Shown here: piece by piece, positions 12,324 through 32,749 of the stretch
Layout of the letters: every line of letters begins with the position of its first letter
Numbering within the stretch: position 1 is the stretch's first letter
Source: Bacillota bacterium
Lineage (GTDB): Bacteria; Bacillota_I; Bacilli_A; RF39; UBA660
Reading direction: 5' to 3'
NCBI GenBank assembly: GCA_015059285.1
Contig: SVAS01000002.1
Coordinates: 2,572-66,571 of the forward strand
Length of the DNA stretch: 64,000 nt
Notes under the pieces: model-generated
Told to the model about the DNA's origin: nothing
What the model saw: only the letters and a program-made list of their open reading frames with translations
Databases searched by the model: none
Translations under genes and position numbers: made by a program

Positions 12324-12527
12324 ATGAAAAAAGCACTGACTTTATTTTTAAAATCAGCGCTAGATACACTCTTATGTACAGTTATTTCATATTCTACCGT
12401 AATTATAACACGTATTTTCCTTATATCAATATGGAACTTTTGTCTGAAAAAATGTCTGACGAAAACTCTAAGAGCCATTGAAAATACTGGTATTTTTTTA
12501 ATAGGTAAAAGCTTATCTAAAAAGTGA
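12324..12527 (+). CDS. Small hydrophobic protein (67 aa) with very strong RBS; function unknown (toxin-like or regulatory?)
   Basis: AAAGGGGGT RBS 7 nt upstream of ATG. Cys-rich hydrophobic peptide inside the element's 1-kb non-coding stretch. Weakly supported. Confidence 0.2.
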   Translation: MKKALTLFLKSALDTLLCTVISYSTVIITRIFLISIWNFCLKKCLTKTLRAIENTGIFLIGKSLSKK

Positions 12528-12563
12528 TTGACAGGGGTAGGTATTTTTTTGTTTTAAATTTTT

Positions 12564-13655: not shown

Positions 13656-14751
13656 AATTTTTCTCCTCTTCTGTTTTTATTAATATTATTCTTGCATAAG
13701 GGACAACAGGATGCCCCTGTGAATCTAGCATATATAAATCTCCATCCACAGCTCCTTTGTGTTGAACTTCTTTACGATATTTTTTATGTTCCGGTTTATA
13801 GGGCTTTACTCCTATCTCCAAACCAGAGTTTGATATTCCTAAACCTAACAAATTAAATTGTTGAGGATTGTATTTATCAAGAAAAGTAATAGGAACTCCC
13901 ATATATCCATTGTAATCTTTAGGAATTTCTGTATATGAATTAATATTTATTGCATCAAAATTTTCATATTTTTGATATTTTTCTTTTGAATAAACTTCAT
14001 ATAATATCAATCTTTCATTATGCCTTTTCACTGGTAAATTCGTAAACCAACAAGATGTAGCAACTCTTACCATTTTTTTACCATCAATAATTTTATGGAA
14101 TTTTTCTGTACTTTCTGGAACAAAGAAATACATACCAACATTAAAATTTGTATATCCCGTTCTTATATTATCTTCTTTAAATAATTTAAAAATTTCTTTG
14201 TATGATAATGCATTTGTGTTGCCCATAATTATAAATTGTTTATTATATTCAATTAATTGTGCAACATACTCTCTAAATAAACTAAAAGGAGGATTGGTTA
14301 CAACAATATCAGATTCTTTTAATAATTCTATACATTCATCTGATCTAAAATCACCATCTTCTTTTAAATATGTTAATGTGTTTTTTTTGTTTTTAATTAA
14401 ATATTCAACATCCAACAAATCAGTAGCACCATCTTCATTATTGTCATCAACTTCTGTTATTTCTATCTTATAAGCTTTCTTATTGTCAGATAAAAGTAAT
14501 TGTGTATTTGCTACTGGCGATGTTGCATAACAAGTTGCGATTAGCTTTTTTAAGCCAAGAAAATTAAAATTCATTGCAAAGTATTTAAAAAAATTACTTT
14601 CATATGGATCATCACAATTACAAAATACAACTTTATCTTTAAATTCTTTCCTATAATTATTTAATTCTTTTTCTATATCTGATAATTGAGTGTAAAATTC
14701 ATCATTTTTTGCTTTATTTGCATTCCTTAAATCCTTATTTTTATTTGCCAT
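13645..14751 (-). CDS. N6-adenine DNA methyltransferase (NPPF motif IV; resembles EcoRI-methylase-like family)
   Basis: VVTNPPFSLFREY catalytic motif. N-terminal NDEFYTQ...VVFCNCDDP...SNFFKYF resembles M.EcoRI-family proteins (from memory, unverified). Confidence 0.65.
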   Translation of the reverse strand: MANKNKDLRNANKAKNDEFYTQLSDIEKELNNYRKEFKDKVVFCNCDDPYESNFFKYFAMNFNFLGLKKLIATCYATSPVANTQLLLSDNKKAYKIEITEVDDNNEDGATDLLDVEYLIKNKKNTLTYLKEDGDFRSDECIELLKESDIVVTNPPFSLFREYVAQLIEYNKQFIIMGNTNALSYKEIFKLFKEDNIRTGYTNFNVGMYFFVPESTEKFHKIIDGKKMVRVATSCWFTNLPVKRHNERLILYEVYSKEKYQKYENFDAININSYTEIPKDYNGYMGVPITFLDKYNPQQFNLLGLGISNSGLEIGVKPYKPEHKKYRKEVQHKGAVDGDLYMLDSQGHPVVPYARIILIKTEEEKNYGN

Positions 14752-14860
14752 ACTCGCACTTCCTAATAATTAAATTATATCATAAAAAAGCATCTTTTTT
14801 TGAATTTTGGTAATATTTTCCTTATAAAAATTAAATTTTAGCAAATAAAAAGAAAGAATT

Positions 14861-15715
14861 TTATCTTTCTTGTCTATTTTTTGATAATTCACTCACGATT
14901 AAATCTTCAGAATGCAAATTGTTATTTTTTCCTAATAATAAATTTTCATAAAACTTAACCAAATAACTTTTATCTTCTTTTACACCTAATTTATTATTAA
15001 AATAATTACTTCTAACTAAGGCATTTCTAAAATACACAGATTTCTCTTTAAATAAACTATTATCTACATTATACCCTAAACTAATTAAATATTTTTCTAT
15101 AAATAAAGCTGTTGTTCTTGTATTACCTTCTCTGAATGGATGTACTTGCCATATATTAGAAGAAAATTTAGTTATATTATTTATAACTTCCACTATATTC
15201 ATATCTTTATAATTTTTTTCTTTTTCTAAAGATATATCATATTCCAAAGATTCTTCTAAAGTTCTACAATCTCCATATGCTACAGAATCTTTATTTAAAA
15301 TAATTTCCGGTTTAGAAAAATCAACTACTCTAAAATTACCAGCAAACTCATAAACATCTTGAAATAGATATTTATGTACATATTTTAAATAATCTACAGA
15401 CAATTCAAATTTATCTTCTTGTAATAATTCTACAATTCTGGTTGAAACAAAATCACATTCTAATTCATTATAGTTTACTTCATTTTTCTTTTCTTTTTCT
15501 ACATAATAATTTCTTAATTCTTCTTTTACTTGATCTAAACTTAATTTACCAACAATATTTTCTTCTAAAAGTTCTTCAAGTTGTTTAGAAGGTTTTAAGT
15601 TATCAACTTCTTGCAAACCAATAGCCATATCCCATTGAATCTGTTTTATATAATTATTAGTTTGATATACTTCTTCATATTCATTAACACTTGAATCAAA
15701 TTCTTTTTCATTCAT
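14861..15715 (-). CDS. Fic/DOC family protein (putative AMPylator/toxin)
   Basis: HPFREGNTRTTALF matches the Fic active-site motif HPFx[DE]GNGRxxR. Confidence 0.75.
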   Translation of the reverse strand: MNEKEFDSSVNEYEEVYQTNNYIKQIQWDMAIGLQEVDNLKPSKQLEELLEENIVGKLSLDQVKEELRNYYVEKEKKNEVNYNELECDFVSTRIVELLQEDKFELSVDYLKYVHKYLFQDVYEFAGNFRVVDFSKPEIILNKDSVAYGDCRTLEESLEYDISLEKEKNYKDMNIVEVINNITKFSSNIWQVHPFREGNTRTTALFIEKYLISLGYNVDNSLFKEKSVYFRNALVRSNYFNNKLGVKEDKSYLVKFYENLLLGKNNNLHSEDLIVSELSKNRQER

Positions 15716-15779
15716 AAGATAACCTCCTTAATTAAAAAATTATATTTCTAATATCACTTTAACATTAAAAATAAATATT

Positions 15780-17633
15780 TTAAATTTTTCTTACAGAATC
15801 ATATGCAATTGATATTTTCTCAAATATATTATCTGTTTCATTAATTAATATTTTTTTAACTTTATCTATATTTTTTATAAAATTAAACAAAGAGTATGTA
15901 TTTTTTTCGGAATCTCTATATACATCTATATAATCAATATAAAATGAAATTGTATCATTTACAATATCGTACAAAAAACCTACAGTTGTTTCCATTTGCA
16001 AATTTTTATTTCCATGAAATTGTTTGTTTCTTAAATAATACGAATTCATTAACAATTCTTTTGCTTCATTATGAAACTTTTGAAAATATAATTCGTATTG
16101 AGATACTAGTTTTATAACTTGTTCATATTTCCAAGTCAAAAAATCACAATTATTTGGATTTCTTTTATCAAAATTTAAAAAAATATTTTCTACAAAATTA
16201 TTACTTAATTTATTAAACCCTTTATACATTTTATTAATTTGCACTGCGGTTAAATATATATATCCTGATATCATTCTATCTGCTACCAAATAACTTCCAT
16301 ATTCCTCTAATGATTTAGAAATATTATCCCCTGCATTTCTAAATAAAGTTTCCAAAGCAAACCAAGTATTAGTAAACTTAGTTAATGTTGATTCTGAATT
16401 CTTATAATACGGCAACAATTGGACTGCCTCATCTATAATTTTATTGATATCATTATCACTATTATCAATAATATATCTTTTAAATACGTCTGAATACGCA
16501 ATTCTATCTTGTGTTAATGGTTTAAAAATATCATCATAAAAATTATAATAATTTATAAATTTTTTCTGCTCTTTGTGTTCTATTAAAAGATAATCTCCTA
16601 CAGCTCCCACTTTTATTCCAGAATATAGCATTGAACCAATAAACGGTTGAAGTACTTTCTGTTTAAATTTACGAATTGCTTGCCATATATCTTTACTATA
16701 AATTTCTGATGATAAATAATAATTATTATCATCCTTTATTTTTAAATTACTGATAATTTCTGTTAAAATTTTTTTATTATTAATTTTTGAGTCCTCTAAA
16801 AATTTAACTAATCCAGACTTACTATATATAATATAATTATTATTTCCAGATTGTTTTAATGCATTTAATAATTTTTCATCAAAATCTTTATCCATTTTTA
16901 TAAATATCGTATACTTATTGTCTGTACCATATTGTTCTGCAAACTTAATAAACATATCACTAAAAGAAGAAAAAGACTTTCTCTTAAAAAAATTTCTATA
17001 CGCATCACGTATTATTTTTTTAATTTCAAAAATACTTATTCCTATATAATCTATCAATAAAGCAAAATATTCATTAGACAATTCTGCTATTTTATCAAAA
17101 TTATCATATTTAATCTCTTTATTTGTTACTAAATCATATAAGTTATCTGATATAGTATCAAAATACTTATTATTAATTAAACTTATATAAATTAATTTTA
17201 AATTTTCTATTAAATTTAAATCATCATTTTCATTAATAAATTGAATATATCTTTTTTTATGATCTTCATTTATAAATTTATTGGTTTTTATAGCATCTCT
17301 TATATAATCTATTTTGTATTTTGGAATTTTAGCCATTTTTTCTTTAGTTTCAAATTGTTTATTTATATCCTCATAATAAGAAATTATTTTATTTATTTTT
17401 CCTAATAATGAATTGTTCAAGTTTCTACTTCCCAACATAGAAATACTACTTAAATTTTCTATAATATAGTTTAAAAAGAACATCATATTTCTATTCTTTA
17501 ATCCAATTTTTTCAAAATCATTATTACAGACAATATTTTTACTAGAAAAAAGCAATTGTTTAATAAATCTTTCTTTATTTTCCAAAACCTTACTACTTGT
17601 TAACAAATACTCTTCCTTAACCATATTACACAT
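15780..17633 (-). CDS. Large (617 aa) uncharacterised protein with C-terminal HEPN-like Rx4H motif (LRNKQFHG); putative abortive-infection/defense effector
   Basis: No NTPase motifs. The C-terminal helical region ...TWFALETLFRNAGD...YYLRNKQFHGNKN is suggestive of a HEPN RNase fold. Located in the defense cargo. Confidence 0.35.
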   Translation of the reverse strand: MCNMVKEEYLLTSSKVLENKERFIKQLLFSSKNIVCNNDFEKIGLKNRNMMFFLNYIIENLSSISMLGSRNLNNSLLGKINKIISYYEDINKQFETKEKMAKIPKYKIDYIRDAIKTNKFINEDHKKRYIQFINENDDLNLIENLKLIYISLINNKYFDTISDNLYDLVTNKEIKYDNFDKIAELSNEYFALLIDYIGISIFEIKKIIRDAYRNFFKRKSFSSFSDMFIKFAEQYGTDNKYTIFIKMDKDFDEKLLNALKQSGNNNYIIYSKSGLVKFLEDSKINNKKILTEIISNLKIKDDNNYYLSSEIYSKDIWQAIRKFKQKVLQPFIGSMLYSGIKVGAVGDYLLIEHKEQKKFINYYNFYDDIFKPLTQDRIAYSDVFKRYIIDNSDNDINKIIDEAVQLLPYYKNSESTLTKFTNTWFALETLFRNAGDNISKSLEEYGSYLVADRMISGYIYLTAVQINKMYKGFNKLSNNFVENIFLNFDKRNPNNCDFLTWKYEQVIKLVSQYELYFQKFHNEAKELLMNSYYLRNKQFHGNKNLQMETTVGFLYDIVNDTISFYIDYIDVYRDSEKNTYSLFNFIKNIDKVKKILINETDNIFEKISIAYDSVRKI

Positions 17634-17710
17634 CCTTTATACATCTATATTATATCATAACAAGATATATTTTTATAATTAAATATAGATCTTAATACCC
17701 AATCCTCAGT

Positions 17711-17729
17711 TACAGTGGCAAATGCACTC
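17711..17729. repeat. Right terminal inverted repeat of intervening element (tacAGTGGCAAATGcactc)
   Basis: Reverse complement of the left IR core CATTTGCCACT. Confidence 0.6.
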
Positions 17730-17730
17730 C

Positions 17731-17993
17731 CCACCTCCCGCATTTATGTGATTAGATATAACTATAACATCACTATTATTCCCATAGGCATCCAAAACTC
17801 TTCTAACTCTTTCATTAGGATTAACAGTTTCATCCATCATTCTAGTCATTTTTACTGGTATCCCCAATTCATTTAAGCGATTATAAATATAATTGGATAT
17901 TTTTAAAGTTAATTCTTTTTCTATTATTCCGCCACCTACAGCACCACCGTCAGTTCCTCCATGTCCCGCATCAATTACAATTTTATAATTCAT
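17731..17993 (-). pseudogene. N-terminal fragment of the split Amidase_3 gene (MNYKIVIDAGHGG...SNHINAGGG), terminated by element-derived codons ECICHCN*
   Basis: DAGHGG, EK..L.I, MTR, and SNHINAGGG motifs of the MurNAc-LAA (Amidase_3) N-terminal half. The reading frame runs into the element and stops after 7 codons. Confidence 0.65.
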
Positions 17994-18068
17994 GAAATAT
18001 TCCTCCTCAAAATATTTTATGATAAATGTCTACATATGTTCAAATTTAGAGCCAACAAAAAAAGAGTA

Positions 18069-19184
18069 TTATTCAATACTCTTAGTTAATTCAACTTTCA
18101 CATCTTTAATTTTACCACTACGGTAATACTTAATTTCTACTTTATCACCAACTTGATGTTTATAAAGCAAGAAACGGAAATGAGCAATGCTTTTAATTTC
18201 AGTTCCATCAAATTGTAAAAGTATATCTCCTTTTTTTAAGCCTGCATTAAAAGCAGGGCTTCCTTTTTCTACTTCAACAACAGCAATACCATTAGTAACA
18301 TCATCTGGAATAATTATATTGTTTCTATATAAAGCAAAAGTATCGCTTATATCTAACATACTAACACCAAGTAATGGTCTTTGAACTTCTTCTCCAGCTT
18401 CTAACTGATCTACAGTAGCCATAACTAATTCAATCGGAATAGCAAATCCCATACCTTCTATTTCATCTTTTACTAATTTTAAAGAATTAACCCCAATTAC
18501 TTCACCATTGATATTACAAAGAGGTCCGCCACTATTCCCCGGATTAATCGCTGCATCAGTTTGAAGAACTTGCATCATAAATTCACCATTAGATAAACTA
18601 ACTTCTACAGTTCTATCTTTTCCAGATAAGATACCTTTAGTAACTGTACCCATATACTCTAGACCAAGTGGGGAACCAACTGTAAATAATGTATCCCCTA
18701 GTTCTAACGCATCACTATTTCCAATTTCAGCGACTGAAATAACTGCATCAGAAGAAATTGATAAAACTGCTATATCAGCATATGTGTCACTCCCTAATAC
18801 TGATGCCTCTACTGTTTGTCCAGAAGTATTAGTTATCTGAACATTATCAGCATCCTCTATAACATGATTATTAGTTATAATGTATCCATTTTTATCTTCT
18901 TTTTTGTAAACAAAACCTGTCCCACTACTAATTGTTTTACCATTTTTGTAAGATTCTATATACATAACAGCATCATACACTTTATCTAGAGAACTTTTAA
19001 TAGTATCTGTTTCTGTAATTGAAACTTCTTTAATAGTTCTTTCAGTCAACTCATTTTCAGGTATATATTTTATAACTACAATTGTACCTGTTACTCCTAC
19101 AAAAAGAGTTATAATAATTGTTAATAAATAAATTAATTTTTCTCTCATAAGTCCTCCTAAGCTAAATCTACTATATCGTGCCAA
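18069..19184 (-). CDS. htrA: HtrA/DegP-family serine protease (trypsin-like domain + PDZ), membrane-anchored
   Basis: N-terminal TM, catalytic TDAAINPGNSGGPL serine motif, C-terminal PDZ. Confidence 0.8.
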   Translation of the reverse strand: MARYSRFSLGGLMREKLIYLLTIIITLFVGVTGTIVVIKYIPENELTERTIKEVSITETDTIKSSLDKVYDAVMYIESYKNGKTISSGTGFVYKKEDKNGYIITNNHVIEDADNVQITNTSGQTVEASVLGSDTYADIAVLSISSDAVISVAEIGNSDALELGDTLFTVGSPLGLEYMGTVTKGILSGKDRTVEVSLSNGEFMMQVLQTDAAINPGNSGGPLCNINGEVIGVNSLKLVKDEIEGMGFAIPIELVMATVDQLEAGEEVQRPLLGVSMLDISDTFALYRNNIIIPDDVTNGIAVVEVEKGSPAFNAGLKKGDILLQFDGTEIKSIAHFRFLLYKHQVGDKVEIKYYRSGKIKDVKVELTKSIE

Positions 19185-20089
19185 TTATCTGGAAATCCAA
19201 TTCTATTTAAAATTCTATTTAATGGCACAACATCTACAATTCCATCTAAATGATCTACTTCATAACTAACTTCTCCTATTAAGTCATGGAATTCTTCTTC
19301 ACTTATCATTTGCTTTAACATGATAATAAGTGCGAATAAATCATTTTTACCAAAGATATATTCACCATCTGTCTTATCAATATCTAACATACGATGATAC
19401 TTATTATCTGGTATTTGTCTTTGCGTTCTATAATCGTATAAAATATCTTCATGAGCACATATATTTCTATAGTTTGCTAGTAAAGATATATATATTCCAA
19501 GTGTTTCCGCATCCATCTTATATAATTCAGCAATAAACATCCTATCATCTGATTTTAGTATGCTATAAAGTTCTGAAATAATTCCTAAAGATAAAACTTT
19601 TACTAAAATCCACATTGGAATATAACCATAATTATCAATATAATGCATTGTCGCAGTATGTTTACGACCATTCACTCTAATTTGCCTTTTCATCTTATTT
19701 AAAACATCTTTGACTTGACGAGTTTTAATAGCATCTTGAGTAAAATTTTTAGGATCTAAATAATCTTTTTCTTTATAACCATATTTTCTTGATAATTCAT
19801 AACTAATAATAGATTTTAAATTATTTTCTACTACTAATATATACTTAAACATAATATTTCTAACTTTGCGATCAAATAAAAACATACCATATAATTCTTC
19901 AAAAGTGGTTCCCTTAATAAAAGTATTGTCTTTATCTGAGCGCATAAAAAGATGACGATATCCACTAACAAAGAAGTAGTTTTCTCTAATAAGAACTTCT
20001 TTTGCTTTTCTAATATCGTTTATCATTAACCCCTTAGATGATAGAATTTCAATTTGTTCGTCTAACGTTTTAAATATCTTACTTTTCAT
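19157..20089 (-). CDS. Abi_2 (AbiD/AbiF-like) abortive infection family protein
   Basis: N-terminus MKSKIFKTLDEQIEILSSKGLMI...YFFVSGYRHLF matches Abi_2 family conserved start. 310 aa. Confidence 0.6.
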   Translation of the reverse strand: MKSKIFKTLDEQIEILSSKGLMINDIRKAKEVLIRENYFFVSGYRHLFMRSDKDNTFIKGTTFEELYGMFLFDRKVRNIMFKYILVVENNLKSIISYELSRKYGYKEKDYLDPKNFTQDAIKTRQVKDVLNKMKRQIRVNGRKHTATMHYIDNYGYIPMWILVKVLSLGIISELYSILKSDDRMFIAELYKMDAETLGIYISLLANYRNICAHEDILYDYRTQRQIPDNKYHRMLDIDKTDGEYIFGKNDLFALIIMLKQMISEEEFHDLIGEVSYEVDHLDGIVDVVPLNRILNRIGFPDNWHDIVDLA

Positions 20090-21631: not shown

Positions 21632-22693
21632 CTAGATGACAGATTTTGAGATTTCGATAACTGGGCGCACACCGTAGTAGAAACCATCGTTGACGTTGAA
21701 GTAGTCAACGTAACCGTCGTAGCCCACGTACCAAGCGCTGCCCGCATAGTCCGCATAAGCAGAGCTTAGCCAGAAGCCATATGGTGGGTTGGATAAATTT
21801 CCATACAACCATGCTGGACATCCAACGTCATATTCTACACATCCTAACAAATCTATTGCTTCATCATGTGTTAACATTCGAGCTCTTGCATTTGTTCTTT
21901 CTATTGCGTATTGTCCTTGATCGTCTGCTAATGTATATGTTTTTGCTGGGATGTTTGTCCAACTACTTGTTTTACTTTCTAAGTAATTTAACGCTGTTAG
22001 TGGACCTTTTTCGTTTGTTGAACAATAATCTCCGGCTTCTCCACATCCATAGTCTTTTTCACTAATCCATGCTACTGTTTCTTCATCTACGTTTCTATCC
22101 ATGATTAATGTTAATGTCCCTGTTGTAGCATCGTCTTTTACTACGTAGAATGTCTTCGCGTCTTCTTTATCGTTTACTTTAACTTGTACTGCTATTCCTG
22201 CTTTTATCGCATCTTCACTACATGTTTCGTTTGCATTTGTGATACATGTTGCTGTTGATGTAATTATTGGGTTTGCTGCTTTTTTATATTCACAGCTTCC
22301 TTCATATTTTGTTGTTGTGATTGCACTTTCGCTTGTTGCTTTTGTTACACAATGTGCTCCATTATTTACAGCAATAGCAACTTTTCCATCTTTTGTTACT
22401 GTTATTTTTCCATTTGTTGGAAGTGCCCCCTTAACTTCTAGTTTGTTTTCTCCAACAAATTCTCCGTTTGTTATTGTAAACTCTACATCTGAAGCCATTC
22501 CATTTTCTAATAGTGAACTTGCATAATACATCTCTCCTGCATCAATAAGTCCATATGCAGTATCTTCAAATGCACTTTCTCTTGCACTACTGATAATGTT
22601 CATTATTACTGGTACTGCAATAAGCGCTATAATTGCTAGTATCACTATTACTGCTAGTAACTCGATCAATGTAAACCCTTTATCTTTTCTCAT
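21632..22693 (-). CDS. DGR target protein: type IV pilin-like (class III signal peptide MRKDKG|FTLIELLAVIVIL, Glu+5) N-terminus with C-terminal C-type-lectin-fold variable domain
   Basis: Canonical prepilin cleavage and methylation motif. C-terminal ...AWLYGNLSNPPYGFWLSSAYADYAGSAWYVGYDGYVDYFNVNDGFYYGVRPVI carries the VR. Start moved to the ATG at 22693, 5 nt after GGTGGTGA (track used an upstream GTG). Confidence 0.8.
   Translation of the reverse strand: MRKDKGFTLIELLAVIVILAIIALIAVPVIMNIISSARESAFEDTAYGLIDAGEMYYASSLLENGMASDVEFTITNGEFVGENKLEVKGALPTNGKITVTKDGKVAIAVNNGAHCVTKATSESAITTTKYEGSCEYKKAANPIITSTATCITNANETCSEDAIKAGIAVQVKVNDKEDAKTFYVVKDDATTGTLTLIMDRNVDEETVAWISEKDYGCGEAGDYCSTNEKGPLTALNYLESKTSSWTNIPAKTYTLADDQGQYAIERTNARARMLTHDEAIDLLGCVEYDVGCPAWLYGNLSNPPYGFWLSSAYADYAGSAWYVGYDGYVDYFNVNDGFYYGVRPVIEISKSVI
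21661..21765 (-). repeat. DGR variable region (VR) at 3' end of target gene
   Basis: 105-bp region about 80% identical to TR 23054..23158. 19 of 21 differences fall at TR adenine positions (AAC/AAT codons in TR vs TAC/GGC/TTC/GAC/AGC/GAT etc. in VR). The 3' boundary is a GC-rich CTGGGCGCACACCG block (IMH-like) in a 27% GC context. Confidence 0.8.
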
Positions 22694-23053
22694 ATCTATC
22701 ACCACCTATCGTTTCATTCTATTATCAGTTTAGCAGTTTTTTATTATTTTCTTTTGTTGTATTACTATTTGTTTTATACTTTTTTCTTTTTTCGACTTTT
22801 TTCTCTCTCTTTTTTACTGCTACTCTGACTTTATTTATTATACATTTTTATCTATCTTCAATTTGTTTTATAACATAAATATTTCAACAAAAAAATCGTA
22901 GTGAACAGACTACTTCATTTTCAATTTCTTTACTAGTGAATTCATCATCTACGATATAGTATTCCTTAAAGTTACCTTTAAGAGGAAAAACACTTGTTTT
23001 CTTTAGCTTTTATTTACTAACCTTAGTCCAGTAAAACGTAGTTTTAAAGAAAT

Positions 23054-23158
23054 CTGGGCGCACACCGTAGTTGTTGTCATTGTTGACGTTGTTGTTGTTA
23101 ACGTTACCGTCGTTGTTCACGTTCCAAGCGTTGTTAGCATTGTCCGCATTAGCAGAGC
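23054..23158 (-). repeat. DGR template region (TR), AAC-rich (13 AAC + 3 AAT codons)
   Basis: Lies in the non-coding gap between the RT gene and the target. On the coding (minus) strand it reads ...AAT GCG GAC AAT GCT AAC AAC GCT TGG AAC GTG AAC AAC GAC GGT AAC GTT AAC AAC AAC AAC GTC AAC AAT GAC AAC AAC TAC GGT GTG CGC CCA G. Confidence 0.8.
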
Positions 23159-23240
23159 AACAATAAACAAAAACCCGAGTAAATACATTACAGCATTTTC
23201 CCTATAATATATAACTAATATAGTTATATATGAAGTTATA

Positions 23241-24443
23241 TTAAGTTTTATACATTATTTTTTTATCTATTATCATAACTTCTGAACCAATAAGGTCATA
23301 TTTTTTTTCATATTTATTTAAAGTATTAGCGACTAGTTTTTTAGTATGCCCATAACTTAAATGTCCCAAATAACTACCCTTGACTTGTAGAAATTTTTCA
23401 TATGGAATAACATTTTGTTCAACTAAACTATTTAACTTTTTAATTTTTCTTTTAAATCTTTTTTTTGTTTGATTTTTTACTTTCATAATCACTTTATTGT
23501 TTTTTATCATATATTTAAAACCTAAGAATTCAAAAGGTTCTTTATGATTATAAATGCGTGTTTTTTTGTTTAACTCTAGTTTATATTTATCAAGTATTTT
23601 TTCTATTTCTTGTAAACAATATTCTAAATATTTTTTATCTTCATGAATTAAAATTCCATCATCCATATATCTTATATAATACTTAATTTTTAATTTTTCT
23701 TTTATATAGTGATCTAATTCATTTAAATATGTAATTGCGAAAACTTGACTAGACATATTTCCTATTGGAAGCCCTTTCCCTTTTTTGTATTCAGGAAGGC
23801 TATTTATTTCTTCAATTAGTTTTTCTTTATCCTGGGCCTTACTATTTAAAATTTTATTGATTTCATGCTGTTTTACTTTTTGTATAGTCTTATTAACATA
23901 TTCTTCATTAGTACTATCAATTATTAAATCAAATATGTTAATTACTTCCTTATCTTTGATTTTTGTTCTAACAAGTTTTTTTATAATATCATGATCTAAA
24001 TTAAAAAAATATTTAGAAATATCAAATTTTAAAACATAAAAAGGTTTGTTTTTTACTTCATTTAAATATTTTTTTAAAAGTTGTATTCCATAATGCGTTC
24101 CTTTTCCTTTTCTGGTTGCTATATTTTGATCAATTAATGATTTATCAAAAACATTTATCATAAAATATTCACTTACAACATGATTAATAATTTTATCAAT
24201 AATATTTTGTGACATTATTAATCTAAGTTTTGGTTCTTTTATTAAAAATACATTATATCTGCCTGGTACATACTCTCTACGTTCTAGAAGCGTTTTAATA
24301 TAAATCATATTAGATACATAATAATTATCAAATTTTTCTAATTTCTTTTTATTTTTAGTATTAATTCTAACTCTATGGTCATATACTTTTTGAATTTTTT
24401 GGATATCAATTATCTGATTGTATAGATTGTTTTTCCTTTTCAT
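23241..24443 (-). CDS. DGR reverse transcriptase
   Basis: 400 aa. RT motifs including LPIGNMSSQ (the DGR-specific I/LGxxxSQ motif 4) and IRYMDDGIL (YxDD). Adjacent to the TR. Confidence 0.9.
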   Translation of the reverse strand: MKRKNNLYNQIIDIQKIQKVYDHRVRINTKNKKKLEKFDNYYVSNMIYIKTLLERREYVPGRYNVFLIKEPKLRLIMSQNIIDKIINHVVSEYFMINVFDKSLIDQNIATRKGKGTHYGIQLLKKYLNEVKNKPFYVLKFDISKYFFNLDHDIIKKLVRTKIKDKEVINIFDLIIDSTNEEYVNKTIQKVKQHEINKILNSKAQDKEKLIEEINSLPEYKKGKGLPIGNMSSQVFAITYLNELDHYIKEKLKIKYYIRYMDDGILIHEDKKYLEYCLQEIEKILDKYKLELNKKTRIYNHKEPFEFLGFKYMIKNNKVIMKVKNQTKKRFKRKIKKLNSLVEQNVIPYEKFLQVKGSYLGHLSYGHTKKLVANTLNKYEKKYDLIGSEVMIIDKKIMYKT

Positions 24444-24762
24444 TTTTCATCCAAGTATTTGTCATTTTATTAATTTCTAATAAATGTCTTCCTACTACTT
24501 CATACTTTTTAAAACTTATTAATTTCTTATCTAAACTTACTTTTATATAATAATTGATCATGCGTATTCTAACTATTAAATCTTTCATATATTTATCATT
24601 TTTATGGACATTTGCTTTATAAACTAATTCCAATAAATCATAACAACTATCCATAATTTTGTTTTTTAATATTACTTCTGTATGTGGATAATTACAAATA
24701 GCCTTTTCAATATATTCAATAGTCTTTTTTATTCGTGTTGCAATTAATAATTTATCTTGCAC
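24406..24762 (-). CDS. avd: Accessory variability determinant (Avd-like four-helix-bundle protein)
   Basis: 118-aa basic helical protein. It overlaps the RT start by 38 nt. Its position and size match Avd. Sequence similarity to Avd was not verified. Confidence 0.55.
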   Translation of the reverse strand: MQDKLLIATRIKKTIEYIEKAICNYPHTEVILKNKIMDSCYDLLELVYKANVHKNDKYMKDLIVRIRMINYYIKVSLDKKLISFKKYEVVGRHLLEINKMTNTWMKNEKEKQSIQSDN

Positions 24763-25169
24763 AAAAGTTCCTCAATTTCATTTAAGACTGTTTTTAAATT
24801 AGAATTACCTAAATTAGCTTTTAACACTTCATATATTTTATTAATCCTATTTACAAAAATATCATAGTTATCTAATCTAAAACTATATTTACTATAAGAG
24901 TTATTCTTATATTTATATTTCTGTATATTATCATCATTAACAATCAGATAATTTATATGTTTGTTTTCTAATGCTTTTTCAATTTTTGAAAGACTTGTAA
25001 TAGGAAAACCAACTTTAATTAAGTTGGTTGTTTCTTTTATTTTATAATTAAATAATCTATTCATAACAATAGCATCATCATTTAAAGATAAATAGAAGCT
25101 CCCACATTTGATAAGAATTATGTAATCCTTATAAATTTCTTTATAAGTATTGTATTTTTCTTTTAACAC
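24744..25169 (-). CDS. Standalone MutS domain I (mismatch-binding domain)-like protein, first gene of the DGR operon
   Basis: YKEIYKDYIILIKCGSFYLSLNDDAIVMNRLFNYKI...KVGFPITSLSKIEKALENKHINYLIVND aligns with the MutS N-terminus (Y..iK..yPd.lLffr.GdFYElf.dDA...s.lL.i.Lt...PmaGvP.ha...Yl.kLv..G..VaIceQ). The Glu of the Phe-x-Glu motif is replaced (FYL). 19-nt overlap with the avd start. Confidence 0.5.
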   Translation of the reverse strand: MLKEKYNTYKEIYKDYIILIKCGSFYLSLNDDAIVMNRLFNYKIKETTNLIKVGFPITSLSKIEKALENKHINYLIVNDDNIQKYKYKNNSYSKYSFRLDNYDIFVNRINKIYEVLKANLGNSNLKTVLNEIEELLCKINY

Positions 25170-25302: not shown

Positions 25303-25340
25303 TACAAAAAAACGATTTGATTTTTATTTCAAATCGTTTT
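25303..25340 (-). terminator. Rho-independent terminator after the 25339..25857 gene
   Basis: Stem AACGATTTGA/TCAAATCGTT with a 9-nt loop, followed by a T-run on the minus strand. Confidence 0.55.
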
Positions 25341-25857
25341 AAGGAGTAGTACATTTGCTTCCATCACTTATCATACAATCAACGCAGTTTAATAAAGTCG
25401 GACTTTCATCAGGGGCCACTATACCAACTACAAATTGAACAACAGTAACAACTAGAAAAACAACAGCACCAGCAATCAATCTTTTAATAAATTTACCTTT
25501 GGCATCCGCCATTTTCTTTTCATCACTTGCGATAGTTGCTTGTAACATGTCTATCATACCCATAACTATTAAAACAAGAGGGACTGCAATTTTTATTAAT
25601 GTCACAATCGATCTAGTGATAACTGGCAATTGACTTGGAATGTTAGAATTACCACATTTTACAAGATCATTCGGATCTAAACAACCCCAAAATTCATCCT
25701 CTATATAAGAACTATTTGCACAAGCCAGTGTTGAAATAGAGTTCAATTGCATTTGCTTGTGCTGATTTAAATCAACTTCTTTTGCTGAAACACTTTCCAC
25801 AAATAATATAGTTAACATCAATGTCATTATCATAAATATCTTTTTCATACTTTTCAC
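25339..25857 (-). CDS. Secreted/membrane protein with signal peptide, Cys-rich N-terminal domain and C-terminal TM helices; unknown function
   Basis: Signal peptide MKSMKKIFMIMTLMLTILFVESVSA. 9 Cys. Two C-terminal hydrophobic helices. Confidence 0.4.
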   Translation of the reverse strand: MKSMKKIFMIMTLMLTILFVESVSAKEVDLNQHKQMQLNSISTLACANSSYIEDEFWGCLDPNDLVKCGNSNIPSQLPVITRSIVTLIKIAVPLVLIVMGMIDMLQATIASDEKKMADAKGKFIKRLIAGAVVFLVVTVVQFVVGIVAPDESPTLLNCVDCMISDGSKCTTP

Positions 25858-27469: not shown

Positions 27470-28375
27470 TTATATTTTATTTATAGCATCTTTTATTATA
27501 TCAATAGATTTTTGAAGACGTCCTTCTTCTGATTTATTTAATTTGACGTATACTTTTTCACGGACTCCATTTGCATTAATAATAGCAGGAAGACCCACAA
27601 AAACATTATTGGTCTCATCATAAGTAGAAACTGTAATAATACTATTTTCATCACCTAATATAGCATTAGTAATTCTAACTAAACACATACCAATACCATA
27701 GTAAGTGGCTCCTTTTCTATTTATAATATCATAAGCTGCATCTCTTACATCTACATATATTTTATCTAGTTCTTCTTCTGTTAAAAATTCTTTAATATTT
27801 TGTAAACCTACACTAGCATTACTCCAAGGAACAAATTCACTATCACCATGTTCTCCTATTACATATGCATGAATATTTTTTGGATTTACATTAAGTTTAT
27901 CTCCTATCATATATCTAAGTCTGGCTGTATCTAAACTAGTTCCAGAACCAATAATTTGATTATGAGGAAGATTAGAGTATTTCCAAGTTAAATAAGTCAT
28001 GATATCTAAAGGGTTTGTTGCAACTAAAAAAATACCATTAAAACCACTATTCATAACTTCAGTTATAATACTTTTAAATATTTTACTATTTTTATGAATT
28101 AAATCCATTCTTGTTTCTCCAGGATTTTGATTAGCTCCAGCTGCAATACAAACTATTTTAGCGTCTTTACAATCACTATAATCCCCTGCTTTTATTTGCA
28201 TTTTAGTAGGAGCAAAAGCTAAACAATGATTTAAATCCATAGCTTCACCTATAATTCGTTCTTTATTTAAATCAATTAAAACTAATTCCTGTACGTTACT
28301 TCTTTGATTTAAGAGTGCATAAGCATAACTCATTCCTACATTACCACAACCTATTATTACTACTTTATTATTCAT
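27470..28375 (-). CDS. ldh: L-lactate dehydrogenase
   Basis: VVIIGCGNVGMSYAYAL Rossmann motif, IGEHGDSEFVPWS catalytic His motif, LDTARLRY. Confidence 0.85.
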   Translation of the reverse strand: MNNKVVIIGCGNVGMSYAYALLNQRSNVQELVLIDLNKERIIGEAMDLNHCLAFAPTKMQIKAGDYSDCKDAKIVCIAAGANQNPGETRMDLIHKNSKIFKSIITEVMNSGFNGIFLVATNPLDIMTYLTWKYSNLPHNQIIGSGTSLDTARLRYMIGDKLNVNPKNIHAYVIGEHGDSEFVPWSNASVGLQNIKEFLTEEELDKIYVDVRDAAYDIINRKGATYYGIGMCLVRITNAILGDENSIITVSTYDETNNVFVGLPAIINANGVREKVYVKLNKSEEGRLQKSIDIIKDAINKI

Positions 28376-28480
28376 ATTATCACCATTTTTATTATATCCT
28401 ATTATTTTATTTAATACAATTATTCAAAAAAAATAAAAAAGTATAATCAATGGATTATACACTTATATATATTAATTTGA

Positions 28481-28822
28481 CTATTTCATAGCTATAAATA
28501 TAATAAAAGAAATTAAATCTATTACCAATATTATAACAAAGCATACCCCAAGCCATTTTGATGCATTAAGAACTGATCCAGTTAGTTTTTCAGTGTTACT
28601 AACTTTTTGTATAACTAAGTTAGTTATATCATTATCAGTTAAATTATCTAAACTAATTTTAAATATTTTAGATAGTTCTTTAGCTTGTTTTATATCTGGT
28701 GATGTTTCATTAAGTTCCCATTTTGATATTGTTTGCCTTGTAACCCCCAATTTTTCTGCAAGTTGTTCCTGTGAAAGATTTGCCTTTTTTCTTAATTCTA
28801 AAATTTTATGACCTATTTCCAT
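28481..28822 (-). CDS. XRE-family HTH regulator with C-terminal transmembrane anchor
   Basis: LSQEQLAEKLGVTRQTISKWE HTH. C-terminal hydrophobic helix. Confidence 0.6.
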   Translation of the reverse strand: MEIGHKILELRKKANLSQEQLAEKLGVTRQTISKWELNETSPDIKQAKELSKIFKISLDNLTDNDITNLVIQKVSNTEKLTGSVLNASKWLGVCFVIILVIDLISFIIFIAMK

Positions 28823-28926
28823 AATATATCTCCTTTCACTACAATCTTACATTTAAAACTTTCATACTTCTACCAATTATAGTTTGAACATACGCAAATT
28901 TTTTTAACATTTTAAAAAATTATTTG

Positions 28927-29826
28927 TTAGGGGTTGTATATTTTACCATTGGTGTCTTTTTGTATTTCATATCCATATTCAAAAATATATGACATACTAA
29001 ATATAATTAATATTTCTAAAATGCTTATTAATTCTATTGGATTTTCTGAAGAAGATATTCCAACTGCTAAATTAAAAATAATTCCCGAAATAGGTGAAAT
29101 AATAATTAAAGCAATAATTAAATAAGAAATTTTTTTGATAAAAGCCACATTATCTAAAGTAAAGGGGGTTATATTATTTTTGATATTATTGAATAATTTT
29201 TCAACGTAACTTAGTATAATTATCATAAGAATAATATCAACTAGTAGAAAAATCATACCTATTTCAACATAACATACTATCTTAAAATTAGAATTATCCA
29301 AAAACATTTGAACAACTTCATTTTCTAAAATATCACCATCAAATTCACCAATTATTACATCATATATTTTTATCTTGTTTTTATCAATTATTTTGATATT
29401 TTCTGTTTTAAAAATTATTTCATTATTTTTAACTTCTACATTATTAACTATATAAGGAACTAATAACATTGTTAATATAATAAATGGTATTGCAACTTTT
29501 AAAATAATAGAGCCTATTTTCCCTATCATTTCAATTATAGTACTTAATATCTTTACTTCTTTTTGTTTTTTTTCATTAAACTTAACTGCCTTCATAATTA
29601 TTTCTTCATCTAACGAAGTAATATCGCTCATATCATTATGAACCAAATCATTTATTTTACAATTAAAAATTTTGCACAATTCTAAAATATTATTCATTTC
29701 AGGATATGATTCACCATTCTCCCATTTTGAAACTGATTGTCTTGTAACATTTACTTTTTCAGCTAATTGTTCTTGTGACATTTTTTTATTTTTTCTTATT
29801 TTTCTTAAATTATCTCCAAACTTCAT
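28927..29826 (-). CDS. XRE-family HTH regulator fused to multi-TM membrane domain
   Basis: MSQEQLAEKVNVTRQSVSKWENGESYP HTH, followed by several TM helices. Confidence 0.55.
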   Translation of the reverse strand: MKFGDNLRKIRKNKKMSQEQLAEKVNVTRQSVSKWENGESYPEMNNILELCKIFNCKINDLVHNDMSDITSLDEEIIMKAVKFNEKKQKEVKILSTIIEMIGKIGSIILKVAIPFIILTMLLVPYIVNNVEVKNNEIIFKTENIKIIDKNKIKIYDVIIGEFDGDILENEVVQMFLDNSNFKIVCYVEIGMIFLLVDIILMIIILSYVEKLFNNIKNNITPFTLDNVAFIKKISYLIIALIIISPISGIIFNLAVGISSSENPIELISILEILIIFSMSYIFEYGYEIQKDTNGKIYNP

Positions 29827-29981
29827 TAGACTTTCTCCTTTCTTACTTTAAGTTTAGTAATCTATTTAATTATTGACAACCTATTTTGTGTTGCTTTTTA
29901 TATTTGCAACTAAAACATTACATTAATATTATAACACGAAAAAAACCAAATCTATTTATAGACTTGATTTATAAAAACAAA

Positions 29982-30650
29982 TTAATTATTACTAATTTTT
30001 TTCTTTCTAATCACTATAACACTTATTAATCCAATTAAAGAAATTACTAACAAGATAATACTTGTTCCTACATTATCATTCGTTTGTGGATTTTCAGGTG
30101 AGGAAATAGACGATGAAATTATTTCCCACTGTGCATAAAATGTCCTATTGCTATCAATTCCTGATTCAGCTAAAATAAGTTCTAATTTTGTGCCACCAGT
30201 CTTTTCTGTATAATAACCCAAAAATTTATAACCTTCTCTAGTAGGTGTTTCTAATGCACTTTCCATTCCTATTTCCCATTTTTCAATAGTTAAAGTATCA
30301 CCAGTTGTAAAATTCCCACCATTTGCATCAAATATAACTTTATATTTTTCATTGTTAAAAACTAAAATTGTGCTGCCTATTGAAACATTATAATCCCCTA
30401 AAGTCCTTCCGTTTTCCATTTCGTTATCGTCAAATATTAATTTTTGATTTTCAGGTAAAAAACTATTATCTAATTGATAGATTTTTTCTTTTACCGCTTC
30501 TATTGTATCAGATGATTCCACTTCTAAAGTTATTTGTCCTATAGATGGTTTTTGTACAACTATTTGCATAGCACTTATTTTTGGTATATAAATAAATACA
30601 AAGAAGAATATAATAAATGGGATTATTTTATATTTTTTCACATTAATCAC
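29982..30650 (-). CDS. Secreted protein predicted to be anchored by sortase B (NPQTN motif): signal peptide + ubiquitin-like domain (about 45% identical to eukaryotic ubiquitin) + Listeria/Bacteroides (Flg_new) repeat + NPQTN sorting signal
   Basis: The mature N-terminus MQIVVQKPSIGQITLEVESSDTIEAVKEKI...QKLIF...ENGRTLGDYN...ST aligns with ubiquitin [30 protein letters not shown]...QRLIF...EDGRTLSDYN...ST. Then KVIFDANGGNFTTGDT...YKFLGYYTEKTGG. C-terminus ENPQTN + hydrophobic stretch + RKKK. Confidence 0.55.
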   Translation of the reverse strand: MINVKKYKIIPFIIFFFVFIYIPKISAMQIVVQKPSIGQITLEVESSDTIEAVKEKIYQLDNSFLPENQKLIFDDNEMENGRTLGDYNVSIGSTILVFNNEKYKVIFDANGGNFTTGDTLTIEKWEIGMESALETPTREGYKFLGYYTEKTGGTKLELILAESGIDSNRTFYAQWEIISSSISSPENPQTNDNVGTSIILLVISLIGLISVIVIRKKKISNN

Positions 30651-30793
30651 ATCCTTATTCTGTTTATATTATAACACAAAAAATCAAATCTATAATAACT
30701 CTATTTGAAAACATTAATTTTATCTTTATTTTTTATAATATTAAATATAAATACTTGATAGTACTTAAAAGTCTAAGCTAACTTTTAAAATCA

Positions 30794-32137
30794 TTAATAC
30801 TCAAATAAGGTATATCCATCTGAACTATAATATTGAATTGTATCATTATATTTACAATACTTACCATTATGTGGCTCAATAATAACTTTATATATTTTCC
30901 CGTCAACTATTTCAGCTCTAAATTCACATTCTTGAACATCATTCATAAATACACCAAGATCAACATTAAAATCATCATATTCTGCTTTTGTTACTTCTTT
31001 GCTATAAGAACCATCTACACGATAAATTATGTAAATACCTTCTTGTTTGTCTTCTTTAATAGTATTATTTTCACAAAAACTTCTAGTCTTCACAATCTGT
31101 TTTTTGCCATAAATATCACTACTAAGAGCATCAACTATATTTTCAACAGTTGTTTCTTCAAAAACAAATCCATTTTTATCTAAATATATGAGATTTGGAA
31201 TTTCATCTACTTTTAATAAATTTATAGAAGTTAAATCAAACCTATAATCATTACAATTCATTGTGGTACTATAATAAATATTTTTTGAAAGGTATTCATC
31301 ACCATCTATAAATTCTAAATACTCAACCCCATTTACATACATATAATATGTAGGATTTCTAAATAATCCTAATTCTACCTCACTTTTTGTTTTTAAACCA
31401 AACTTATTTAGTACTCTAGCAATTCCATCTAAATTAGGAATTATATTATCATATTTTGTTAAATATTTAGCCATGCCTTTTGAGGTAATAGAAAATCCTA
31501 CCAACAAATTTTTTTTAATATAACATTCAAGTTCTTCGCCAACTAATACACACTCATATATTTTTCCATAATCTTTATCTTGTTTTAATTCATTCCATAA
31601 TTTTATACTATATTTTTCCTTAGAACTTTGTTTTTTTATTTTGTCGTTATTAATAACTTCATTTAATAATTTCTCGCCTTCCTGTTTATCAATTACCTCT
31701 ACTAAAATATGTTTTTTATCACTAACAAAAGAAAAATTCTTATACACTTTCACTTTAGCTTTATTAACATTATATTTATGTTCTTTTAAATAATTATAAA
31801 TATAATCAACAGAATCAATTAAATTCTTACCAATTACATTCAATTCATCATATACTTTTATACAATCATCATTTAAACAGCCCACTGATATAACTTTATT
31901 GTCTCTTACTTCTAACACAAATTTAGGATTTATTTCTAAAAAAACATAGTTAATTTCTTCTGTTTTTAATTCTTCTAATTTACTAGTTATTTTTTCATCA
32001 TTAATCTTCATTAATTGTTTATTTATTAGATTAAATATGATAATAGCACTTATTATACCAACTATTAAAAGAAAAACATATTTTTTTGAATTCTTTTTTT
32101 GATTGGTGTTATTATTTTTTTTCACAAACCAACACAC
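30794..32137 (-). CDS. Membrane-anchored (N-terminal TM) large extracytoplasmic protein of unknown function
   Basis: 447 aa, single N-terminal TM, no recognisable motifs. Confidence 0.35.
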   Translation of the reverse strand: MCWFVKKNNNTNQKKNSKKYVFLLIVGIISAIIIFNLINKQLMKINDEKITSKLEELKTEEINYVFLEINPKFVLEVRDNKVISVGCLNDDCIKVYDELNVIGKNLIDSVDYIYNYLKEHKYNVNKAKVKVYKNFSFVSDKKHILVEVIDKQEGEKLLNEVINNDKIKKQSSKEKYSIKLWNELKQDKDYGKIYECVLVGEELECYIKKNLLVGFSITSKGMAKYLTKYDNIIPNLDGIARVLNKFGLKTKSEVELGLFRNPTYYMYVNGVEYLEFIDGDEYLSKNIYYSTTMNCNDYRFDLTSINLLKVDEIPNLIYLDKNGFVFEETTVENIVDALSSDIYGKKQIVKTRSFCENNTIKEDKQEGIYIIYRVDGSYSKEVTKAEYDDFNVDLGVFMNDVQECEFRAEIVDGKIYKVIIEPHNGKYCKYNDTIQYYSSDGYTLFEY

Positions 32138-32290
32138 TCACTTTCAAATTATGATTTATCTATCAGTTACATTATAACATATATTTTGAAAAAAATTAGA
32201 GTATTGCAATGACAAGCTTCTAGGTTATATAAAAGTTTGAGCAACACTGTATATGGCTTATGATAAAAGTTAAAAACTAAATTTAGACAA

Positions 32291-32316
32291 GCAAAAAAGC
32301 CTATTTATAGGCTTTT
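32291..32316 (-). terminator. Rho-independent terminator after rpsI
   Basis: AAGCCTAT-TTA-TAGGCTT hairpin followed by a T-run on the minus strand. Confidence 0.5.
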
Positions 32317-32338
32317 GAAACATTGAAATATGTAATTC

Positions 32339-32749
32339 TTAACGTTTTGAGAATTGTGGTGCTCTACGAGCTGCTTTAAGTCCTGGTTTTTTACGTTCTT
32401 TCATACGTGCATCTCTAGTAATAAATCCAGCTCTTTTTAAAATTGTTCTAAAGCTATTTTCACTACCAGCATTTGGTGCATCATATTCAAGTAAAGCTCT
32501 AGCAATACCTAAACGAATAGCTCCTGCTTGACCAGAGAACCCACCACCGTTAACTTTTACTTCAATATCAAATGTATTTTCTGTATTTGTTGCTACTAAA
32601 GGTTGTTTTAAATCCATTACATTAGTTTCATATGGGAAGAATTCATTTACATCTACACCATTAACAGTTATTTTACCTTTTCCAGGTACCATTCTAACTT
32701 GTGCTACAGAAGATTTTCTTCTACCAGTTCCAATATATAATTTTTCCAT
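32339..32749 (-). CDS. rpsI: 30S ribosomal protein S9
   Basis: [26 protein letters not shown] ... C-terminal KR-rich tail ending RAPQFSKR. Confidence 0.9.

Follow-up and report, generated by a model that had tools for sequence, protein, structure and literature searches.

How a domain of eukaryotic ubiquitin could come to stand on a bacterial surface protein, and what use it might serve there, is the question raised by a single gene in a 64,000-nucleotide stretch of contig SVAS01000002.1 from an uncultured Bacillota bacterium of low GC content that lives in the ruminant gut (the stretch is referred to in full as the window). The gene lies on the minus strand and encodes a protein that GenBank names 'MAG: LPXTG cell wall anchor domain-containing protein [Firmicutes bacterium]' (MAG, metagenome-assembled genome). 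This label refers to the LPXTG anchor domain alone, and those who rely on it cannot tell that the protein contains ubiquitin. The explanation favored here, with somewhat better than even confidence, is that the product is a sortase-B-anchored, internalin-like surface protein in which ubiquitin forms the distal binding head. The gene and the parts of its product are as follows.

29982..30641, minus strand: coding sequence of the ubiquitin-headed, putative surface protein, 219 amino acids plus stop, GTG start, equal to GenBank MBE6144541.1
30652..30656, minus strand: ribosome-binding site AAGGA, 10 nucleotides before the GTG at 30641, read from the sequence
30570..30641, minus strand: signal peptide MKKYKIIPFIIFFFVFIYIPKISA, assigned by inspection
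30354..30569, minus strand: ubiquitin domain, 72 residues, MQIVVQKPS...GSTILVFN, without LRLRGG (BLASTP, PF00240, model superposition)
30123..30344, minus strand: Flg_new / Listeria-Bacteroides repeat, the putative stalk domain (PF09479, E 1.1e-10; TIGR02543)
30078..30092, minus strand: sorting motif NPQTN, read from the sequence
30009-30071, minus strand: hydrophobic membrane-spanning segment of 21 residues, read from the sequence
29997-30008, minus strand: basic tail RKKK, read from the sequence; together with the hydrophobic segment, 29997..30071

The longest open reading frame (ORF) at this place, 29982..30650 on the minus strand, begins at an upstream GTG at 30650 and comprises 222 amino acids. 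The second GTG, at 30641, gives the 219-residue protein beginning MKKYK and is likely the true start, because the AAGGA site lies 10 nucleotides upstream of it and because both the gene callers and GenBank use it. The product has four parts, namely a putative signal peptide, a ubiquitin domain, a single Flg_new repeat, and a sorting signal composed of NPQTN, a hydrophobic segment, and RKKK. By eye, the signal peptide shows a KKYK n-region and a hydrophobic core followed by ISA|M (ISA|MQI); the A|M junction with the ubiquitin domain is at least 90% conserved among 47 aligned homologs, and AlphaFold2 predicts a helix at residues 6-20 of this region. Cleavage after ISA is predicted to expose Met1 of the ubiquitin domain. 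This domain ends ...STILVFNN, has no GG, and reads straight into ...STILVFNNEKYKVIFDANGG of the Flg_new repeat, which matches PF09479 at 41.9 bits (cutoff 27) and TIGR02543 at 22.2 bits (cutoff 20.95). In the sorting-signal region, the NCBIfam model TIGR01167 (LPXTG_anchor) scores 18.4 bits, just over its cutoff of 15.9, and a further helix is predicted at residues 194-221. A preliminary description of this DNA had proposed the same arrangement, with no C-terminal GG and a fusion to Flg_new, NPQTN, a hydrophobic segment, and RKKK, and both the sequence itself and the Pfam and NCBIfam matches agree with it. Pfam gave no leucine-rich repeat (LRR) match in the window protein, in which the ubiquitin domain holds that position.

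The relationship of the N-terminal domain to ubiquitin is close. An alignment of human ubiquitin with the mature part of the protein (BLASTP, E 9e-18) contains one gap and 35/68 identical positions (51%), so that the homology stated in the preliminary description stands and its figure of about 45% was slightly low; in the family alignment the count is 35/72 (49%). Pfam ubiquitin (PF00240) matches at 54.2 bits (cutoff 25.4; E 1.2e-14), and the best sequence matches in the PDB are all ubiquitin. An AlphaFold2 model built with 47 homologs has a mean predicted local distance difference test score (pLDDT) of 84.5, with values of 84-93 in the ubiquitin domain, and Foldseek superposes this domain on PDB ubiquitin chains with a root-mean-square deviation (rmsd) of 0.6-0.7 Å over 72-74 residues and a target TM-score of 0.9. 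The N-terminal domain is thereby predicted to have the ubiquitin beta-grasp fold, in keeping with the homology first proposed, and a generic beta-grasp similarity of less than 30% identity is excluded by the 49-51% of the window protein and by family members reaching 62/72 (86%). For the two-domain model as a whole, the best Foldseek matches in the PDB are linear (Met1-linked) di-ubiquitins, over 160-170 columns at an rmsd of 9-12 Å; the match is loose and arises because Flg_new, itself beta-grasp-like, stands in tandem behind ubiquitin.

Like eukaryotic ubiquitin, the window domain retains E16-I30, G53-Y59, L43, and F45. It differs from eukaryotic ubiquitin in its presumed extracellular location, in the lack of LRLRGG, and in the replacement of K48, K63, K11, L8, H68, and V70; the residues found at ubiquitin positions include P8, K42, I44, N48, I63, L68, and F70. 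Because there is no GG and the domain is fused to the next one, it is incapable of conjugation.

A search of 5.8 billion proteins at E <= 1e-5 yielded 271 matches, of which 120 are listed, and PF00240 and PF09479 are both present in 120/120 of those listed. The listed members are mostly 205-244 amino acids long, with some of 312-389, and 119/120 carry an xPxTx motif, in most cases NPxT with L, F, G, S, or N as the next residue. When 47 short forms are aligned, the sorting motif shows no exception at its P and T, and the A|M junction, much of the ubiquitin core, and the Flg_new repeat vary little or not at all. The family consensus is identical to eukaryotic ubiquitin at 56-57/72 positions. Most members are only about 60% identical to it (median 44-45/72), whereas three (P0066, P0104, and P0119) share 60-62/72 positions with it and retain ...LHLVLRL. 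GG is absent even from the members most like ubiquitin, which end LVLRLS/T, and the window protein is among the more diverged members.

Since the gradient of identity reaches 86%, transfer from a eukaryote to a bacterium, rather than convergence or a generic beta-grasp resemblance, is the only reasonable origin of the ubiquitin domain. Such a transfer had been suggested at the outset, and the identities (49-51% for the window protein and up to 86% for other members) bear it out. The family further represents a capture independent of BfUbb, the ubiquitin homologue of Bacteroides fragilis, because 0/121 sequences (the 120 listed matches and the window protein) are closer to BfUbb than to eukaryotic ubiquitin; the consensus matches BfUbb at 42/72 positions, and the window protein at 31/72 vs 35/72 for ubiquitin. 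The BfUbb sequence used in these comparisons was validated by its near-maximal score to PDB 8hm3_A. The likeness to BfUbb drawn in the preliminary description is thus retained as an analogy but not as kinship, given the independent capture and the different architecture. The GC content of the gene is 27%, and 16% at third codon positions (GC3). As both values match those of the neighboring genes, the capture is old and its sequence has adapted to the AT-rich codon usage of the host. The family consensus carries S19 and A57, which we take to be plant or fungal-type rather than animal, but also E24, and no donor is named. IMG/VR viral contigs gave one weak match, to Flg_new alone, and the family is not evidently phage-borne. 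When a profile of signal peptide plus ubiquitin was run against a representative library of 1.84 billion proteins, nothing usable on other bacterial architectures emerged, the best 150 matches, with 4-28 stretches each, looking like eukaryotic polyubiquitins.

Literature from 2018 (PMC6194340) described B. fragilis as alone among bacteria in having a homologue of eukaryotic ubiquitin, and the open-access work found on BfUbb concerned Bacteroides alone. A 2024 paper on BfUbb and BoUbb (PMC11467351) deals with Bacteroides only in its passages on ubiquitin homologues, and neither Firmicutes nor sortase is mentioned in it. No publication on sortase-anchored or Firmicute ubiquitin homologues was found in the open-access literature. 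The separate parts are known (captured ubiquitin, Flg_new, and the sortase B signal), and their combination, the size of the family, and its mobility are undescribed in the open-access literature searched. The family is a second, independent, and much larger bacterial capture of ubiquitin, with at least 120 two-domain proteins (271 matches), in a phylum other than that of Bacteroides.

Anchoring by sortase B is a well-supported reading of the sorting signal. A class B sortase stands directly beside the ubiquitin-headed gene or a relative of it in four related loci (L007, L008, L010, and L011), and TIGR03064 scores these sortases at 200.6, 193.7, and 169.4 bits, the fourth reaching 152.2, which is 1.5 bits below the cutoff of 153.75. 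In L007 (1-5400), L008 (200-3800), and L011 (700-8100), the ubiquitin-headed genes encode long-form paralogs of about 320 amino acids with an extra middle domain. The two types occur together in one MAG, RGIG2062, which has a short form (L002) as well as a long form flanked by two class B sortases (L007). The long-form loci encode an excisionase-like HTH_17 protein and a tyrosine integrase (L007), a serine recombinase and a Mob_Pre relaxase (L011), or an IMS polymerase (L008), and they belong to integrative or mobilisable elements that bring along one or two class B sortase genes. The L007 element lies about 9 kb from rplM-rpsI, the operon that also flanks the ubiquitin-headed gene in the window. 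Sortase B genes also occur on elements resembling integrative and conjugative elements (ICEs) in samples 3300024269, 3300022660, and ERZ27248314, which hold the ubiquitin-headed gene as well; assigning them to the present genome was rejected, as co-occurrence in a metagenome does not place them there. The 558-residue serine recombinase of the window is unrelated to the recombinase beside these ICE-borne sortases. The window organism encodes peptidoglycan-related domains (LysM x4, Hydrolase_2, and Amidase_3) and is walled, and the ubiquitin-headed protein is the sole protein with a sorting signal in the window. Among known sortase B substrates, Staphylococcus aureus IsdC has an identical NPQTN, a hydrophobic segment, and a basic tail, and sortase B adjoins the paralogs here; unlike IsdC, the present protein has no NEAT or haem-uptake context.

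A relative in locus L010 (9050-11373) suggests what the ubiquitin domain replaces. This 501-residue protein consists of a BspA-type LRR head (LRR_5), a middle domain, Flg_new, and NPQTS, with a class B sortase directly next to its gene. Its middle domain is found in the long ubiquitin forms too, its Flg_new is of the same subtype, and it is 44% identical to the window protein over 173 residues spanning the Flg_new repeat and anchor. The middle domain, Flg_new, and NPxTx form a common stalk-and-anchor cassette on which heads are swapped. Ubiquitin takes the place of the LRR binding head, because the LRR protein of L010 shares the stalk and anchor. Sortase substrates are attached through their C-terminus, and therefore the ubiquitin domain would be distal and exposed. 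Internalins and BspA-like proteins are similarly built, with a signal peptide (assigned by eye in the window protein), a distal head, one or more Flg_new stalk repeats, and a C-terminal sortase signal; they differ in having an LRR head in place of ubiquitin and LPXTG in place of NPxTx, which is of the sortase B type.

According to the favored explanation, an ancestor of these gut Bacilli captured a ubiquitin module from a eukaryote. The protein would be exported by the Sec pathway, and removal of the signal peptide would leave Met1 of the ubiquitin-fold domain as the N-terminus, with the Flg_new repeat as a stalk behind it. A class B sortase would then cleave the NPQTN signal and link the protein to peptidoglycan, making ubiquitin the outermost part on the cell. 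The head is most likely a ligand-binding or recognition module with a new, lineage-specific, adhesin-like specificity rather than a mimic of ubiquitin signaling, because conjugation is impossible and the L8/I44/H68/V70 patch is no longer maintained. Strains exchange heads by recombination, and mobile elements carry the longer paralogs along with a dedicated sortase B. The domain identities, the predicted fold, the conserved motif, the sortases adjoining relatives, the stalk in common with an LRR-headed protein, the purifying selection, and the mosaic allele are direct results; that the protein is in fact exported and anchored, and that it binds any ligand, we infer. The protein is a candidate adhesin or antigen at a host-microbe or microbe-microbe interface in the ruminant hindgut, and it may cross-react with host ubiquitin. 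The part in host or interbacterial interaction that the preliminary description suggested is a guess, and the canonical interaction patch of ubiquitin is poorly kept in the family.

The distribution of conserved residues in the family is informative with regard to function. At least 90% conserved are E16, V17, E18, S19, S20, D21, T22, I23, E24, K27, K29, and I30, and likewise Q41, L43, F45, G53, R54, T55, L56, D58, Y59, and T66; the helix side is nearly invariant, and conservation at residues 16-30 and 53-59 is 94% or more, except at N25, V26, A28, and S57. Exposed E16, E18, D21, K29, and D58 are conserved at 98-99%, and K27 and K29 at 99%. The surface recognized by almost all ubiquitin-binding domains is variable (L8 43%, I44 60%, H68 47%, V70 24%, R42 36%, and K48 46%), and K63, a chain-forming lysine like K48, is conserved at 63%. 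Entropy is 2.15 bits at beta-sheet-face positions vs 1.13 at other non-core positions (Mann-Whitney p = 5e-5), in a post hoc test for which the list of face positions followed ubiquitin-variant library designs. This pattern is roughly the inverse of the eukaryotic one, as known from deep mutational scans in yeast. The variable patch argues against a conserved mimicry of ubiquitin signaling and for a new use of the scaffold, and the family, with constraint apparently distributed the other way round than in eukaryotes, offers a natural experiment on the ubiquitin fold freed from the conjugation machinery.

Population evidence comes from a second allele of the same species (P0393), whose flanks are 97-98.7% identical in nucleotides. 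Of the amino-acid differences between the encoded proteins, 11 lie in the 72-residue ubiquitin domain and 5 in the signal peptide, against a single one in the other 123 residues. Nucleotide divergence is 10-13% over 30350-30760, which covers the promoter, signal peptide, and ubiquitin, and falls to no more than 1% downstream from about 30350, the ubiquitin/Flg_new junction, where there is a sharp recombination breakpoint. The proportion of synonymous differences (pS) is 0.24 in the divergent part vs 0.013 in the remainder, and the ratio of nonsynonymous to synonymous differences (pN/pS) has the same value, 0.26, in the two parts. We considered positive selection on the ubiquitin head and rejected it, since the clustered changes represent an imported divergent segment and pN/pS is 0.26, rather than a dN/dS above 1. 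Recombination thus brought in the head, together with the adjacent variable slot, from a lineage of greater divergence, and the head is under purifying selection. The ubiquitin domain is therefore functional and can be exchanged as a cassette, as is often the case in surface antigens and adhesins. The slot between rpsI and the ubiquitin-headed gene differs between strains as follows.

30794-32137, minus strand: 447-residue membrane protein with a weak RsgI_M-like match (variable slot of the window strain)
L092 9163-9828: unrelated 221-residue protein, replacing the gene for the 447-residue protein (variable slot of the P0393 strain)

A more specific proposal can be offered only tentatively and is less likely than not: gut Bacilli would have domesticated ubiquitin as a diversifying surface binding scaffold, in which the helix side is frozen and the beta-sheet face varies in each lineage for new ligands, with heads swapped between strains and spread on mobile elements together with sortase B. 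If true, this would be a natural counterpart of the engineered ubiquitin variants and Affilins.

Several observations weigh against the favored explanation of an anchored protein with a ubiquitin binding head. There is no sortase ORF (TLxTC) within the 64-kb window; the pairing of sorting motif and sortase asked for in the preliminary description is borne out by the conserved NPxTx-type motif and by the paralogs with adjoining class B sortases in four related loci. The signal peptide of the window protein was judged by eye alone, the gene neighborhood points to no ligand, and the synteny of the short forms is not conserved. The entropy contrast carries the limits given with it. Finally, Flg_new has a mean pairwise identity of 66% vs 56% for the ubiquitin domain and is the most conserved part of the family, and hence the functional center could be the repeat, with ubiquitin a mere cap.

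Of the other explanations, ubiquitin mimicry survives best, although it is unlikely. It holds that the displayed domain imitates host or protist ubiquitin, engaging ubiquitin-binding proteins or receptors for extracellular ubiquitin, or being tolerated as 'self' by the immune system. P0066, P0104, and P0119 keep nearly the whole ubiquitin surface, including LHLVLRL, and BfUbb is described as cross-reacting with anti-ubiquitin antibodies (PMC3352274, PMC6194340). Nevertheless, the family has kept little of the patch to which nearly all ubiquitin-binding domains attach, the window protein having P8, I44, L68, F70, K42, and N48, and most members share only about 60% of their residues with ubiquitin. 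Moreover, ubiquitin-binding domains are intracellular. Mimicry is plausible for the most ubiquitin-like members and poorly supported for the window protein.

The high conservation of Flg_new is also the basis for regarding the ubiquitin domain as an inert cap or spacer, a stable fold that merely protects or projects a functional Flg_new without a ligand of its own, and the conserved ubiquitin residues do lie mainly in fold-determining segments. We consider this improbable, since the exposed E16, E18, D21, K29, and D58 are nearly invariant, the head sits where the sister protein of L010 has an LRR binding domain, and heads are swapped between strains as cassettes.

An antibacterial toxin that leaves the cell surface and kills competitors, in the manner of BfUbb, is suggested by the fact that the only characterized bacterial homologs of eukaryotic ubiquitin, BfUbb and BoUbb, are described as secreted toxins (PMC5705921, PMC11467351). 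BfUbb and BoUbb, from B. fragilis and B. ovatus, resemble the window protein in being derived from eukaryotes by horizontal transfer, in having a signal peptide (in the window protein assigned by eye) and no C-terminal GG, and in belonging to gut bacteria. In contrast, BfUbb is a free, periplasm-targeting toxin of about 76 residues in a Gram-negative Bacteroides, whereas the domain considered here is the head of a 219-residue Bacillota protein that is predicted to be wall-anchored. BfUbb is reported to be imported through the SusCD transporter ButCD (PMC11467351), and its uptake makes use of this Bacteroides transporter and a periplasmic target, which are absent from Gram-positive neighbors. 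No immunity-like gene is conserved near the ubiquitin-headed genes, and in no case among the 121 sequences is BfUbb a closer match than ubiquitin. A toxin role is therefore very improbable, and the predicted wall-anchored protein, with ubiquitin exposed at its head, would put the domain to a completely different use from that of BfUbb.

A sortase-polymerized fiber, in which sortase B links NPQT, through its Thr, to K27 or K29 of the following subunit and so builds a 'polyubiquitin-like' pilus, has slimmer prospects still. Both lysines are 99% conserved, the long form in L007 is flanked by two class B sortases, and some class B sortases polymerize pili. However, K27 is buried in ubiquitin, the sorting signal is ordinary, Pfam gave no Cna_B or pilin match in the window protein, and the loci are single-gene ones without minor pilins.

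Although Flg_new is beta-grasp-like and the whole model loosely aligns to linear di-ubiquitin, an artefact, whether an assembly chimera that took in eukaryotic DNA or a beta-grasp likeness due to chance or convergence (such as a diverged second Flg_new repeat), is excluded by the recurrence of the identical protein in ENA, Logan, and GenBank assemblies as well as on 22 JGI contigs that are independent of one another, the 271 homologs, the host-like GC3, and the 49-86% identity to ubiquitin.

The identical protein is found with the same synteny on the 22 JGI metagenome contigs and also occurs in ENA, Logan, and GenBank assemblies. The conserved gene order is rplM-rpsI, a membrane protein of 443-447 residues, the ubiquitin-headed gene, two XRE-type helix-turn-helix (XRE-HTH) membrane proteins, and ldh. 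GTDB species representatives with the family are uncultured 'Bacilli bacterium' MAGs from the colon, caecum, and rectum of goat, sheep, and water deer. The family also extends to a 'Bacillales bacterium' and to one MAG labeled 'Clostridia bacterium', and the LRR-headed L010 protein belongs to a second Clostridia MAG; the genomes carrying the family or the L010 relative have 22-28% GC. Features close to the ubiquitin-headed gene are given below.

28927..29826, minus strand: XRE-type HTH protein with a membrane domain, downstream of the ubiquitin-headed gene (HTH_3, E 2e-17)
30668..30692, minus strand: promoter-like element TAGATTTGATTTTTTGTGTTATAAT, extended -10, TGnTATAAT, upstream of the ubiquitin-headed gene
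29928-29954, minus strand: second, near-identical copy of the promoter-like element, upstream of the XRE-HTH gene

Homologs of the XRE-HTH protein adjoin the ubiquitin gene in L001 and L006 and lie about 1 kb away in L004. This protein is a possible regulator of the ubiquitin-headed gene, the functional link being a lead. The shared element of 25-27 nucleotides has the form TAGATTTG(A/G)TTTTTT..GTGTTATAAT, of the extended -10 type; it occurs twice in the whole window and is elsewhere confined to loci of the same species. The two copies may constitute a shared promoter or operator, which would imply co-regulation. A scan with the sigma-70 consensus was uninformative in this AT-rich DNA (37 sites vs 38 expected), and an Rfam search of 28300-32500 detected neither a riboswitch nor any other kind of RNA upstream of the ubiquitin-headed gene.

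Elsewhere, the window contains a complete diversity-generating retroelement (21632-25169, minus strand), with the following components.

23241-24443, minus strand: reverse transcriptase, RVT_1
24406-24762, minus strand: bAvd
24744-25169, minus strand: small MutS_I-like ORF
21632-22705, minus strand: target gene with an N-terminal pilin-type N_methyl motif
23049-23158, minus strand: template repeat
21656-21765, minus strand: variable repeat

Every mismatch between the retroelement repeats in the first approximately 100 aligned positions falls on an A of the template. In the last ten positions, 2/3 mismatches do not, and these non-A mismatches probably mark the end of the repeat. Two further proteins may be listed with the retroelement.

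57-1436, minus strand: 459-residue protein, pseudopilin-like at the N-terminus and similar in its C-terminal region to that of the retroelement target, no Pfam match
25339-25857, minus strand: small secreted protein, T4SS_pilin (PF18895), between the housekeeping genes and the retroelement

The former may be a second, remote target of the retroelement or a paralog of its target, and the T4SS_pilin gene encodes 342 residues in some strains vs 169-172. An island of mobile or defence-type genes (9891-20089, minus strand) contains the following.

9891-11567, minus strand: large serine recombinase
12564-14751, minus strand: two ORFs, ParB/HNH-type-like and DNA methyltransferase-like by eye
14861-15715, minus strand: ORF that is Fic/DOC-like by eye
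within the island, minus strand: 617-residue protein, no Pfam match
18069-19184, minus strand: HtrA-type protease, embedded in the island
19157-20089, minus strand: Abi_2 protein

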